A DNA stretch of 51,807 nt from Escherichia phage ECO26.1 3-1: the sequence record OR844578; one strand, given 5' to 3'. A model generated the notes under the pieces. The model had not been told where the DNA came from. It saw only the letters and a list, made by a program, of their open reading frames with translations, and did not search any database. Position 1 is the stretch's first letter. Every line of letters begins with the position of its first letter. The position numbers were made by a program, and so were the translations under genes. Positions 47,043-49,885 of this stretch are shown in pieces.

Positions 47043-47237
47043 ATGGAAGAGTTTGCTAAAGTAGTTTTTATTGGTTGGTTTGAAAATGGTAGTATGTTTA
47101 CCAAAGAAATCCGCATGGATATAACAGACAAAGAGCATATCATGTGGGCTACCATGCAGTTTGCTGAAATTCATGAAGCATTAGTTAAAGCATTTGTTAA
47201 TGACGAGAAAGTTTTCGAAGCTGATTTCAGAGGATAA
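47043..47237 (+). CDS. dmd: Dmd, antitoxin against host RnlA/LsoA RNases
   Basis: 64 aa; VVFIGWFENGSMFTKEI...WATMQFAEIHEALVKAF resembles T4 Dmd (gene 61.5). Confidence 0.65.
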   Translation: MEEFAKVVFIGWFENGSMFTKEIRMDITDKEHIMWATMQFAEIHEALVKAFVNDEKVFEADFRG

Positions 47238-47238
47238 T

Positions 47239-47451
47239 ATGTATTCAACTGTGTTTAAACCATCAACATACGAATTTGCATCAACTACACAATGGAAAGC
47301 TCTTATTCTGGAAGGATGGGAACTAATGATGGACTGTGAAGCATCTGAAAAGTTTCCACACGGCAAAGTGGACTTCGTTAAATTTGCTGTACGTCCGACT
47401 AAACGACAGATTCGTCAAGAAAAACGCAAATTTCGCAAAAGTTTAAAATAG
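47239..47451 (+). CDS. hypothetical basic protein (70 aa)
   Basis: ATG 47239 two bases after dmd stop. Confidence 0.5.
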   Translation: MYSTVFKPSTYEFASTTQWKALILEGWELMMDCEASEKFPHGKVDFVKFAVRPTKRQIRQEKRKFRKSLK

Positions 47452-47453
47452 CT

Positions 47454-47483
47454 GTTTACAAGCCCCACATACTGTGTTACTAT
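47454..47483 (+). promoter_or_regulatory. early promoter GTTTAC-17-TTACTAT
   Basis: -35 47454-47459; -10 47477-47483. Confidence 0.5.
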
Positions 47484-47511
47484 CTTTCTATCAACTACAG
47501 AGGAAATTGAA

Positions 47512-47880
47512 ATGAAAAAATTAATCGCTTTAGCAATGGTATTCGGATTAACCGGATGTGGTGCTCATGGCTTTATCCCTAATAACGTTGGCCAACTGAT
47601 TTACAATCCAAATGTTAAACAGTATGACCAACCTAAAGTTGAAGTGGAAGACCCGGTTACTGTAGGTAATCGAATGATTCAAGCTGATGCTCATGCTCAA
47701 CGTTATCGTGATTCTGATACTGTAGCATTGTCAAAAGAACAACGCGTTAAAGAACATTGCTTACAGGCTACTGAAATCGCATTCATTCGCTATGTTGAAA
47801 CAACTGGTAAAGAGCCTACCCAGAAACAAATCGCGAATAACTACGTCCAGTGTATTGAACGTTTAAACAAATTTAATTAA
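47512..47880 (+). CDS. lipoprotein (122 aa)
   Basis: Lipobox LTGC after signal peptide; SD AGAGGAAA. Confidence 0.55.
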   Translation: MKKLIALAMVFGLTGCGAHGFIPNNVGQLIYNPNVKQYDQPKVEVEDPVTVGNRMIQADAHAQRYRDSDTVALSKEQRVKEHCLQATEIAFIRYVETTGKEPTQKQIANNYVQCIERLNKFN

Positions 47881-47883
47881 TTG

Positions 47884-47914
47884 GTTTACACCAAAGTTAA
47901 AATAAGATACTATA
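47884..47914 (+). promoter_or_regulatory. early promoter GTTTAC-17/18-TACTAT
   Basis: -35 47884-47889; -10 47907-47913. Confidence 0.5.
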
Positions 47915-47941
47915 AACATAACAAATCAAGAGGAAATTAAC

Positions 47942-48190
47942 ATGGAATTATTCGTGGCTAGTTCAGTAGCAGTTTTAATCGCAGGTATTGGTTCAATCGT
48001 CATTTACATGTTGCCTTGGGTAATCGCACTTATTCGTGGCACAAAAAGCACAACAGCAATCTTCTTTGTATCTTTACTCTTTAACTGGACGATGATTGGT
48101 TGGATTGGAACTTTGATTTGGTCTATCGTTGCCGAAAAGAAATCTGCTCAGCAGCCTCAACAAGTAATTATTATTCGCGAAAAAGAATAA
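47942..48190 (+). CDS. small inner-membrane protein, Imm-like (superinfection immunity) candidate
   Basis: 82 aa, two TM helices, Trp-rich; size and topology like T4 Imm; assignment tentative. Confidence 0.45.
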   Translation: MELFVASSVAVLIAGIGSIVIYMLPWVIALIRGTKSTTAIFFVSLLFNWTMIGWIGTLIWSIVAEKKSAQQPQQVIIIREKE

Positions 48191-48194
48191 ACTT

Positions 48195-48224
48195 GTTTAC
48201 ATTATAGATGGACTATAGTATAGT
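48195..48224 (+). promoter_or_regulatory. early promoter GTTTAC-17-GTATAGT with flanking inverted repeat ggacta/tagtcc
   Basis: -35 48195-48200; -10 48218-48224. Confidence 0.5.
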
Positions 48225-48253
48225 AGTCCTATCAAATCAACTAAGGAGTTAAA

Positions 48254-48547
48254 ATGAAAAAGTTATCATTGGCAGCAATCTTACTTGCAGTATCATGTGC
48301 ACCAGCTCCAGTTACAGCAGGTTATGATAAAGACCTCTGTGAGTGGTCAATGACTGCAAATCAAGAAGATGTTGAACAACAAATCTTCTCTGATATCATG
48401 AACATCACTAAACGAGACCGTCCTAATATGGTTAATAAAGTTGTTGAACAACTTAAGTCTGGCGGTATCATGCAGTACAACTATGTTTTGTATTGTGACC
48501 CTAATTTCGATAACAAAGATATCGTAACCGAAATCACAGGTGAATAA
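48254..48547 (+). CDS. sp: Spackle periplasmic protein (superinfection exclusion, lysozyme inhibitor)
   Basis: 97 aa; signal peptide then AGYDKDLCEWSMTA...GGIMQYNYVLYCD resembles T4 Sp. Confidence 0.75.
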   Translation: MKKLSLAAILLAVSCAPAPVTAGYDKDLCEWSMTANQEDVEQQIFSDIMNITKRDRPNMVNKVVEQLKSGGIMQYNYVLYCDPNFDNKDIVTEITGE

Positions 48548-48548
48548 T

Positions 48549-49199
48549 ATGATTTATTATATGCACAAAAACGCACCATTTAAATATGGTAAATTTCCTA
48601 ATGCACAATGTTATAATATAACGCCGAACGAAAATAACAACGGATATCATATTGGTGTAATTTTTGTAATTGTTAAAGATAACGAAATCGTTGCCTGGGC
48701 AGATTTTAAAGGTACAACATACGATGTTAATCCTGTGCCTTTCACATATTACAATATAATGGATTTGGCATATGATTATAATTGGTTTAATCATGACACG
48801 TTGGCTCATATTGAAGGTGTAGGATTTGACATCTCTTATTCTAGTTATTCATTATGTCCTATGAGCCGAGCTCACGGTAAAGATGTATCATATCTTTCAA
48901 TTCGGAAACGTGTAGACTTCAAACGTAGTACAGAGTATGTTGGTGGACTCTTTGTTAAAGATAATAAAATAACCCGTATTAGTTATCCTCTAAGTGTAGG
49001 CCAAAAAGATGTTGATGTTGATTTGGACTTAACTGAAAATAACATTAATCGTATTGCTTCTGTATATTTTGATATCGATGAAAAAATTGTAGTGTGTGGA
49101 TACGAATTACCACCTGAAGAAAAGGCTGAAGCAATTGAAGTCGAATTAGAAATTTCTGTTGATGACCAAATATTTAATGCATTTATGAATAGAGGTTAA
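48549..49199 (+). CDS. hypothetical protein (216 aa) at the T4 61.2 position
   Basis: ATG 48549 after sp stop; aromatic-rich N-terminal half. Confidence 0.55.
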   Translation: MIYYMHKNAPFKYGKFPNAQCYNITPNENNNGYHIGVIFVIVKDNEIVAWADFKGTTYDVNPVPFTYYNIMDLAYDYNWFNHDTLAHIEGVGFDISYSSYSLCPMSRAHGKDVSYLSIRKRVDFKRSTEYVGGLFVKDNKITRISYPLSVGQKDVDVDLDLTENNINRIASVYFDIDEKIVVCGYELPPEEKAEAIEVELEISVDDQIFNAFMNRG

Positions 49200-49200
49200 A

Positions 49201-49398
49201 ATGACTACTGCAATTTGCACTGGTTCTAAAATTAGTGTTTTTACAAGTTTTGAAGATTATGAAGTTGTTTCAAAACACCAATGCCATATTAGCGTAAAAG
49301 CTAATGATGGTGTAATTTGGAATATTCCGCATTATGAAGGCACTACATATGAAGTCACAGATATAAATGGTGACAAAGCAATCTTTGTAATTGATTAA
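49201..49398 (+). CDS. hypothetical protein (65 aa)
   Basis: ORF track; ATG right after upstream stop. Confidence 0.45.
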   Translation: MTTAICTGSKISVFTSFEDYEVVSKHQCHISVKANDGVIWNIPHYEGTTYEVTDINGDKAIFVID

Positions 49399-49417
49399 AT
49401 ATACTCAGGAGGTACCT

Positions 49418-49885
49418 ATGGGTATTATTAACACTGCAATAGATTCTGTTTATGCATATAAGTTTATTCGACTAATGCAAAAACCTTTTACCGAATGGAA
49501 AGCATACGAAGCCAAAATCATCGATGAACGTGGAAGTGTTCTTAAACGTCCTTCTACTCCCGAAGAAAAAGCGGCGTATACACCTTTTCATGCTTCAGTT
49601 CGTTCAATGAAGCGAATGATGAGCACTGTTCCGGGTCTTAATGGAATGGCCTCAATGATGTCTGCCTGGAGTGCTGTAGCTTCACGCTATAACATTACGG
49701 AAGAACAACAGAAAGAAATATTTAAAGAACTCCCTTTATTTGAGGATATGGTTGCTGGTGATTCAGGCGGCAGTCCTCAAGCTATTGCATCAGGAACAAC
49801 TACAGGTGCAGTCGTAAATAAAGGTCCAGAACAAATTCCTTCCAAGAAAAGAAAGCGAATTAAAGTAAATATTAATAAGTTGTGA
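49418..49885 (+). CDS. hypothetical protein (155 aa) with basic C-terminus
   Basis: Strong SD AGGAGG before ATG 49418. Confidence 0.5.
   Translation: MGIINTAIDSVYAYKFIRLMQKPFTEWKAYEAKIIDERGSVLKRPSTPEEKAAYTPFHASVRSMKRMMSTVPGLNGMASMMSAWSAVASRYNITEEQQKEIFKELPLFEDMVAGDSGGSPQAIASGTTTGAVVNKGPEQIPSKKRKRIKVNINKL

Follow-up and report, generated by a model that had tools for sequence, protein, structure and literature searches.

A dense run of small genes separates the replicative helicase gene (gene 41, 44764-46206) from the primase gene (gene 61, 49925-50947) in Escherichia phage ECO26.1 3-1 (sequence record OR844578; the window is the whole stretch of DNA that was analysed, 51,807 nucleotides (nt), and all positions refer to it). 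Every gene of this region, 41 and 61 included, is encoded on the plus strand, and the interval 47043-49885, which reaches from the start codon of dmd to the stop codon of an open reading frame (ORF) of 155 amino acids (aa), is a gap-free series of small ORFs. It holds eight genes: dmd (61.5; 47043-47237, 64 aa), 61.4 or tifA (47239-47451, 70 aa), imm.1 (47512-47880, 122 aa), imm (47942-48190, 82 aa), sp (61.3, Spackle; 48254-48547, 97 aa), 61.2 or adfA (48549-49199, 216 aa), ORF033c (49201-49398, 65 aa, acidic) and a long form of 61.1 that we refer to as 61.1L (49418-49885, 155 aa, basic). An earlier, sequence-only reading of the window had rightly recognised the run of small genes between helicase and primase, and the seven genes that it listed are all present; its list was nevertheless incomplete, tifA having been overlooked, probably because the ORF list from which it worked gave an 85-aa ORF with a TTG start that overlaps dmd. 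Its interval also omits two ORFs located after gene 41 and ahead of dmd, namely ORF041c (46295-46669, 124 aa) and ORF040c (46725-47042, 105 aa; an Arr-like protein with a predicted mini ADP-ribosyltransferase (ART) fold). The core gene run of that reading therefore stands, but its gene count does not, and neither does its claim about promoters (see below).

Among the 525 phage records that match the region 46200-50000, the best match was Escherichia phage moskry (98.6% identity, 100% coverage). RB69 is 96.9% identical over the same region, and 155 records match the island at 95-99% identity. Since moskry and RB69 are both members of the genus Mosigvirus (subfamily Tevenvirinae), sequence similarity places ECO26.1 3-1 among the RB69-like members of the T4 family, and its window can be read against two annotated references.

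Searches of Pfam and PHROGs and tblastn comparisons with T4 proteins agree on the family membership of the island genes. The identities to the T4 island proteins and to T4 Imm were 60% for dmd, 57% for tifA, 64% for imm, 66% for sp and 66% for adfA. ORF041c belongs to phrog_10668 (E 3e-86) and its product is 100% identical to RB69ORF041c; ORF033c belongs to phrog_3249 (E 4e-33; 98% identical to RB69ORF033c), and 61.1L to phrog_2086 (E 1e-73). T4 lacks both ORF041c and ORF033c in the tblastn comparison. Searches against NCBIfam gave no meaningful match for any of the ten proteins, and there was no match in Pfam, at E values up to 10, for ORF040c, ORF033c or 61.1L, nor any Pfam or NCBIfam match for ORF041c.

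Very probably, the interval 47043-49885 is the RB69-type (Mosigvirus) form of an island of accessory early genes found in T-even phages at this position, between helicase and primase. Descriptions of the island and of its main genes are already in the literature, where the interval was named the "anti-TA island" (TA, toxin-antitoxin) by Srikant et al. 2022 (PMC9391042); the window provides an isolate-level version of the RB69 arrangement. What was determined here directly is which genes are present and in what order, their promoter motifs, the alleles that they carry and how the region varies among relatives.

Predicted toxin inhibitors Dmd, TifA and AdfA

The molecular mechanisms that we attach to the island genes are carried over, by analogy, from published experiments on the RB69 and T4 orthologues. 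Dmd, named as such in the sequence-only reading, matched Pfam PF17587 (82.5 bits, E 2.6e-23) as well as the solved structures of RB69 Dmd (PDB 5i8j, E 7.3e-23) and of T4 Dmd in its complex with LsoA (5hy3_B, E 4e-19), and would be expected to bind and neutralise the RNase toxins RnlA and LsoA. In T4, dmd is reported to be conditionally essential on K-12 cells that express RnlAB (bioRxiv 10.1101/2025.11.20.689424), and the searched passages of the HIDEN-SEQ preprint describe no newly found anti-defence gene between genes 41 and 61. When compared to RB69, the region 46200-51000 is mostly 97-100% identical at the nucleotide level, apart from a handful of 60-nt blocks at 88-95%; strong divergence is confined to one patch at approximately 47000-47200 (some 190 bp at 55-65% identity), which corresponds to the first two thirds of dmd. 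Moreover, of the 744 phage records that have a Dmd, just three (moskry, 95%; Yersinia phage vB_YenM_P8, 91%; and Ec2-ASingh, 89%) encode one at least 80% identical to this one. On sequence grounds, dmd appears to be a rare, recombinationally swapped cassette within an otherwise conserved island. Because the protein is only 62% identical to RB69 Dmd and 60% identical to T4 Dmd, its toxin specificity may differ from theirs, and, as a more doubtful possibility, this rare Dmd could extend protection to RnlA or LsoA variants that escape the common Dmd.

The start codon of tifA (ATG, 47239) lies 1 nt after the stop codon of dmd and is preceded by the Shine-Dalgarno sequence GAGGA. TifA matches DUF7279 (71.6 bits, E 5e-20), carries both the Pro-Thr (PT) motif and the basic cluster 'VRPTKRQIRQEKRKFRK' (sequence ...FAVRPTKRQIRQEKRKFRKSLK), and is 100% identical to RB69 gp61.4. 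T4 TifA is longer (85 aa), and its C-terminal extension is missing here. TifA has been found to bind ToxN and RNA by way of the Pro-Thr motif and the basic helix that follows it (PMC10853763), and TifA of RB69, a stronger inhibitor of ToxN than that of T4, lets RB69 form plaques on toxIN hosts (PMC9391042). By analogy, the protein in the window would bind the endoribonuclease ToxN, a type III toxin, and also RNA, and ECO26.1 3-1 should resist ToxIN on account of its RB69-type TifA. (A search of PDB sequences with TifA gave only three matches, with E values near 0.25, which is the level expected by chance.) The gene varies among close relatives: this tifA is found at 95% identity or more in only 68 records, versus the 155 that have the island at that level, and it is cleanly absent from two Mosigvirus contigs from IMG/VR (L005, 534-800; L007, 4703-4970), in which the dmd stop codon is followed by the imm.1 promoter. 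A second gene of the TifA family is present in the window far from the island (18850-19020, plus strand, 56 aa; DUF7279, Pfam E 1.1e-14; motif TVRPTKRQLRKAKR), with a GTTTAC promoter of its own at 18771.

The sequence-only reading had stated that gene 61.2 of an RB69-type phage has been reported as an anti-DarT factor, and had pointed to the 216-aa ORF as its possible counterpart. The statement agrees with the literature, in which gp61.2 of RB69 and T4 is AdfA, anti-DarT factor A (PMC11825919; PMC9391042), and the ORF is indeed a member of that family. Specifically, it matches Pfam AdfA (PF23813) from end to end (residues 1-216 on positions 1-211 of a model of 211; 398.3 bits, cut-off 27, E 7.8e-120), three substitutions (A109V, N119D and S147G) separate it from RB69 gp61.2 over 212 aligned residues, and its position, 1 nt after the stop codon of sp and ahead of ORF033c and 61.1L, is that of the gene in RB69 and T4. 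We favour the upstream ATG at 48549 as the probable start codon, whereas the RB69 record begins 12 nt further downstream (212 aa); the upstream ATG has the Shine-Dalgarno sequence GGTGA 5 nt before it, the Pfam alignment starts at residue 1, and the T4 gene has the equivalent start.

By analogy with its orthologues, AdfA would bind the DNA ADP-ribosyltransferase toxin DarT1, yet the allele in the window has Arg rather than His at the residue that decides this in RB69 (position 164 in RB69, residue 168 here; context ENNINRIASVY). Native RB69 AdfA neither interacts with E. coli DarT1 nor neutralises it, and the single substitution R164H confers both abilities; His is found at this position in T4 and most T-evens, and Arg in the closest relatives of RB69 (PMC11825919). 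The AdfA of ECO26.1 3-1 should accordingly not neutralise the tested E. coli DarT1 unless Arg164 is mutated to His, which would place the phage one point mutation (R164H) away from AdfA-mediated escape from DarTG1.

AdfA proteins form a very narrow family: 5.8 billion proteins yielded 16 clusters at 90% identity (all 16 carry PF23813), and for this reason a search for related loci with AdfA returned only 8. Arg at position 164 is confined to the Mosigvirus cluster; His occupies it in 13 other clusters and Asn in one. The protein is also a mosaic of two modules, since a class of 210-aa homologues (P0234-P0245) is 90-99% identical to it over residues 1-108 and 72-75% identical over residues 109-216. 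In that class the C-terminal half, which contains residue 164, looks T4-like. In some other T-evens (L011 and L012; 6001-6042) adfA has shrunk to a remnant of 14 C-terminal residues (…DDQIFNAFMNRG), consistent with the reported lack of adfA in T2. A search of PDB sequences with AdfA gave no match.

These observations bear on whether the Arg164 form is a dead allele or a working inhibitor that is tuned to another DarT homologue, or to another toxin met by Mosigviruses. Within the Mosigvirus cluster, the representative of which stands in for 258 member sequences, Arg164 is fixed, the ORF is intact and well conserved, and the mosaic structure suggests that specificity modules are exchanged; moreover, the authors who described the inactive AdfA variants proposed that these evolved against other DarT homologues (PMC11825919). 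Against this, DarTG1 is fully effective against RB69, which has Arg164, and a two-hybrid assay detected no interaction between RB69 AdfA and DarT1 (PMC11825919). We consider the question of a retuned inhibitor to be evenly balanced.

Superinfection exclusion genes and predicted early promoters

What the sequence-only reading had called a lipoprotein is imm.1, the gene that precedes imm in T4 too. Imm.1 matches DUF5481 (37.3 bits against a cut-off of 27, E 3.7e-9; phrog_1754), is 32% identical to T4 Imm.1, and has the N-terminus of a predicted lipoprotein (MKKLIALAMVFGLTG, then Cys), with a hydrophobic segment, a signal peptide and the lipobox LTG/C16. The identification of its neighbour as an Imm-like protein with two transmembrane segments holds as well: Imm, an inner-membrane superinfection immunity protein, matches Imm_superinfect (PF14373; 57.2 bits, E 1.5e-15; phrog_1039), aligns with T4 Imm over its full length, and has hydrophobic segments at approximately residues 1-34 and 40-59. 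The assignment of sp is equally firm. Its product matches T4_Spackle (PF25676; 145 bits, E 1.1e-42) and the structures 6x6o, 6xc0, 6xc1 and 7cn6 (E 1.4e-39), with an N-terminal export signal and a gap-free alignment to 6x6o over residues 1-97 in which Cys29 and Cys81 of the mature helical bundle are kept. Spackle, for which a disulfide has been described, is an inhibitor of the tail lysozyme gp5, and superinfection exclusion is brought about by Spackle and Imm together (PMC7677548). By extension, Imm would block, at the inner membrane, the entry of DNA from T-even phages that arrive later, and Spackle, in the periplasm, would inhibit the gp5 tail lysozyme of superinfecting phages.

The placement of imm beside sp, rather than between genes 43 and 42, had been singled out as a departure from T4. 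It is real, and it is already present in the RB69 reference annotation: as in RB69, imm.1 and imm lie between tifA and sp, each with its own promoter. Promoter-cassette shuffling plausibly produced the relocation. Downstream of gene 43, the window retains a 115-nt remnant of the T4 imm-42 spacer (37252-37364; 71% identity, E 4e-9), which the RB69 record annotates as ORF054c, "similar to T4 42-imm intercistronic region". The remainder of the interval between gene 43 and uvsX (36550-43250) contains genes of the sugar-nucleotide type and a gp42-like protein with 25% identity to T4 gp42, a gene content consistent with the unusual cytosine modification of RB69 (PMC6024577; PMC13326640).

The motif GTTTAC-N17-19-TANNAT occurs 14 times in the window, each time on the plus strand, when 0.68 occurrences are expected, and thus is not a chance pattern. 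Five predicted early promoters (46236-48224, all on the plus strand) serve the island: those of ORF041c (46236-46265, GTTTACA-N17-TATGAT), ORF040c (starting at 46670 within an element that spans 46670-46724, GTTTACT-N16-TATTAT), imm.1 (47454-47483, GTTTACA-N17-TACTAT), imm (47884-47913, GTTTACA-N17-TACTAT) and the group sp-adfA-ORF033c-61.1L (48196-48224, TTTACA-N17-TATAGT). All five agree with the published consensus TTTACW-N17-TAYWAT of the promoter-early stem-loop (PeSL) elements of T4- and PST-type phages (PMC4122927). The statement that most genes of the interval have their own early promoter does not hold, however: a T4-type early promoter directly upstream is found for imm.1, imm and sp, that is, for three of the eight genes, whereas the other five follow the preceding gene at short distance (0 nt for dmd; 1 nt each for tifA, adfA and ORF033c; 19 nt for 61.1L).

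Host sigma-70 RNA polymerase would be expected to read the island from these promoters immediately after infection. The operon structure suggested by the layout comprises ORF041c alone, ORF040c-dmd-tifA, imm.1 alone, imm alone, and sp-adfA-ORF033c-61.1L, the last probably continuing into gene 61. In T4, dmd and tifA are known to form an operon of two genes that is served by an early promoter upstream of dmd, and a second promoter lies downstream of tifA (PMC9391042); the arrangement in the window differs in that dmd has no promoter of its own and is preceded by ORF040c.

Two of the promoters are associated with hairpins. Directly after gene 41, a hairpin with a UUCG loop (46210-46231, inverted repeat I6; -12.8 kcal/mol, z -2.6) precedes the ORF041c promoter, so that 46210-46294 contains every part of a putative PeSL element: stem-loop, early promoter, Shine-Dalgarno sequence and ATG. 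The island resembles published PeSL cassettes (PMC2839356, PMC4122927) in that accessory ORFs of a hyperplastic region have an early promoter directly ahead of their Shine-Dalgarno sequence and start codon; it is unlike them in that four of the five promoters have no upstream stem-loop. Recombination at these sites is inferred. The promoter at 46670 sits inside a hairpin with a 14-bp stem (46676-46720, inverted repeat I1; -21.5 kcal/mol, z -5.05; 0 of 200 shuffled sequences as stable), in which the stretch that immediately follows the -35 element is base-paired to the ORF040c Shine-Dalgarno sequence in the 3' arm, with the -10 element left in the loop. Transcripts that read through from upstream would hide the ribosome-binding site of ORF040c, and those that start at the internal promoter would leave it free, an arrangement that is known for other T4 genes. 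(The single match in a search of Rfam over 44000-51807, with E 0.28, fell on the promoter hairpin, and we judged it to be due to chance.) A further, stable hairpin (49884-49927, GGCCTTA..TAAGGCC; -13.5 kcal/mol, z -3.8) separates 61.1L from gene 61, and the stop codon of gene 61 is overlapped by 4 nt by a convergent 65-aa ORF on the minus strand (50944-51141; RB69ORF029w) with a hydrophobic sequence.

ORF040c and the primase-proximal genes

The stop codon of ORF040c abuts the start codon of dmd, and the gene apparently shares the promoter of, and is co-transcribed with, dmd and tifA. T4 has no counterpart. Nevertheless, ORF040c is present in 609 phage records, from T4-like phages of Escherichia, Klebsiella, Acinetobacter, Aeromonas and Vibrio; the identity is 60-99% except in nine of them, and a few of these records label the homologue a "(putative) ADP-ribosyl transferase". 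An alignment of 26 sequences (down to 59% identity) shows that H15-G16, G40-R41-x-K43-N44, F49/F50, T51, Y60, R63 and F101-x-E103 are invariant or nearly so. ORF040c has both the series of residues of a nicotinamide adenine dinucleotide (NAD) site (His ... aromatic/Tyr ... acidic) and the features of an ART fold, and we take its conserved positions to correspond to H21/Y54/Y65/E148 of diphtheria toxin. Foldseek, run against viral models, matched ORF040c to a 94-aa "Ms Rifampin ADP-ribosyl transferase" (37% identity, E 1.8e-8). Direct searches gave no match to the Pfam family Arr-ms (PF12120) at E values up to 10, and a profile search of PDB sequences returned nothing. A profile search of 1.84 billion representative proteins returned 220 relatives, however, and several of these, among them P0276, P0260 and P0255, carry Arr-ms above its cut-off exactly at the region matched by ORF040c, a link that is only transitive; some of the relatives are domains of giant multi-domain proteins that also contain ART-PolyVal, NUDIX, GNAT or Toprim. 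Together, the relatives that carry Arr-ms, the conserved residues and the Foldseek match argue that ORF040c is an Arr-branch ART domain and a putative enzyme. It shares its invariant His-Tyr-Glu positions with Arr, AcrF11 and the ART domains of polyvalent proteins, although at 105 aa it is shorter than Arr (approximately 140 aa).

Such an enzyme could inactivate a component of host defence in an NAD+-dependent manner, as the anti-CRISPR ART AcrF11 does, or could modify a small molecule or nucleic acid. That the island holds at least one uncharacterised counter-defence effector, with ORF040c as the best candidate and ORF033c, imm.1 and 61.1L as possible further toxin inhibitors, strikes us as doubtful, even though Srikant et al. 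suggested that "other genes in this region" might encode additional toxin inhibitors (PMC9391042). Across genera, ORF040c is far better conserved (64-98%) than anti-defence proteins usually are. We also considered a toxin/antitoxin-like pair formed by ORF040c and the small ORF downstream of it, and rejected this idea, the downstream ORF being unrelated in phages of Klebsiella, Acinetobacter and Aeromonas. A literature search found no paper on ORF040c and none that uses RB69 ORF names.

At the other end of the island, a more distant relative (L012) encodes a homologue that is 69% identical to ORF033c. The 155-aa ORF is the common full-length form of 61.1: 112 homologues of approximately 154-158 aa are found in T4-like phages of Salmonella, Citrobacter, Serratia, Yersinia and Acinetobacter, whereas T4 gp61.1 (54 aa) aligns only to the C-terminal MVAGDSGG...IASGTTTGAVVNKGP...KKK module, and phrog_1823, the T4 61.1 family, matches only residues 100-151. 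The RB69 record lacks one A at window position 49566, which splits the ORF into ORF032c and 61.1; in the window and in moskry it is intact, as it is in the 112 homologues. The RB69 frameshift is either a sequencing error or a frameshift of the laboratory strain. A search of PDB sequences with 61.1L gave no match.

One explanation for these two genes is that they are accessory factors for replication or for expression of the primase, coupled to gene 61, and have no part in anti-defence. The gene for 61.1L is immediately upstream of gene 61 in T4-like phages of E. coli, Salmonella, Serratia, Yersinia and Acinetobacter, at 50-85% identity; its C-terminal motif, MVAGDSGG..IASG..G, is invariant and is kept even by T4, and the protein is basic, with an isoelectric point of 9.7. 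However, neither ORF033c nor 61.1L bears a likeness to any replication protein or family, T4 manages with the C-terminal module of 61.1 only, and the RB69 frameshift, if real, argues against 61.1L being essential. A role in replication or primase expression for the pair seems to us unlikely. A general phage function would account for the conservation of 61.1L beside gene 61 no less well than counter-defence would.

The island compared with those of RB69 and T4

The swapped dmd, the presence or absence of tifA, the adfA remnants and the confinement of Arg164 to the Mosigvirus cluster of AdfA proteins all point to the accessory, arms-race character of the island. It might be argued instead that the clustering is without functional meaning, with the interval between genes 41 and 61 a recombination-tolerant, hyperplastic region in which PeSL cassettes collect and "anti-host island" a label applied after the fact. 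The build of the region is indeed cassette-like, with near-identical early promoters at the borders of cassettes and a PeSL-type hairpin and promoter after gene 41; imm.1 and imm are placed elsewhere in T4, and the window keeps the spacer remnant described above; and tifA, adfA, ORF040c, ORF041c and ORF033c are each variably present among relatives. The functions are also mixed (antitoxins, superinfection exclusion, a conserved primase-adjacent gene), and in T4-like phages of Klebsiella and Acinetobacter the interval holds mostly different ORFs. On the other hand, Dmd, TifA and AdfA are three independent toxin inhibitors encoded within 2.2 kb in both T4 and RB69, which seems more than a random sample of some 150 accessory genes would be expected to yield (a judgement made without a statistical test), and the authors of PMC9391042 interpret the interval as an island. 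We regard clustering devoid of functional meaning as possible but not probable. Note that the two views are compatible, in that shuffling could form the island and selection retain its genes.

Several points nevertheless weigh against describing the interval of ECO26.1 3-1 as an accessory early-gene island directed at the host. The anti-host label of the sequence-only reading agrees with the published anti-TA island for part of the cluster, but Imm and Sp act on superinfecting phages, not on host defences, and three of the eight genes (imm.1, ORF033c and 61.1L) have no known role. The conservation of 61.1L beside the primase gene, even in Acinetobacter phages, looks more like that of a conserved function in phage physiology. 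AdfA with Arg164 is inactive against the one DarT1 that was tested, and AdfA is dispensable in T4, according to published data; its structure model is poor (pLDDT, the model's per-residue confidence score, 63.6) and gave no informative fold match. Finally, the early promoters are predictions from matches to a consensus, and the activity of these particular alleles is extrapolated from their orthologues.

If the orthologues are a guide, the cluster would set which E. coli strains (hosts with RnlAB/LsoAB, ToxIN or DarTG) support the growth of RB69-like phages, and also whether an infected cell can be superinfected, both of which are relevant to choosing or engineering therapeutic phages. The small additions made here are the rare swapped dmd allele, the presence or absence of tifA in close relatives and the mini-ART next to dmd. 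The last of these is the main open lead, ahead of the rare Dmd allele and the Arg164 form of AdfA; current understanding is left unchanged.

When compared to RB69 (AY303349/NC_004928), the window has ORF041c, ORF040c, dmd, 61.4, imm.1, imm, sp, 61.2, ORF033c and the sequence of ORF032c plus 61.1 in the same order and orientation, with an identical TifA and an AdfA that likewise has Arg164. It differs in its dmd allele and in the 155-aa ORF, which is intact in the window and split in the RB69 record. The likeness to the anti-TA island of T4 (PMC9391042; PMC11825919) lies in the flanking genes 41 and 61, in the core dmd-tifA(61.4)-sp-adfA(61.2)-61.1, and in the concept of clustered, early-expressed protein inhibitors of the toxins of TA systems. 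The T4 layout is as the sequence-only reading had described it: genes 41 and 61 enclose dmd, 61.4, sp, 61.2 and 61.1, and the pair imm.1-imm is found between 43 and 42. Unlike the T4 island, that of ECO26.1 3-1 contains imm.1 and imm together with ORF033c, ORF040c and ORF041c; moreover, 61.1 is 54 aa in T4 versus 155 aa here, and T4 AdfA has His164 where the AdfA of ECO26.1 3-1 has Arg.

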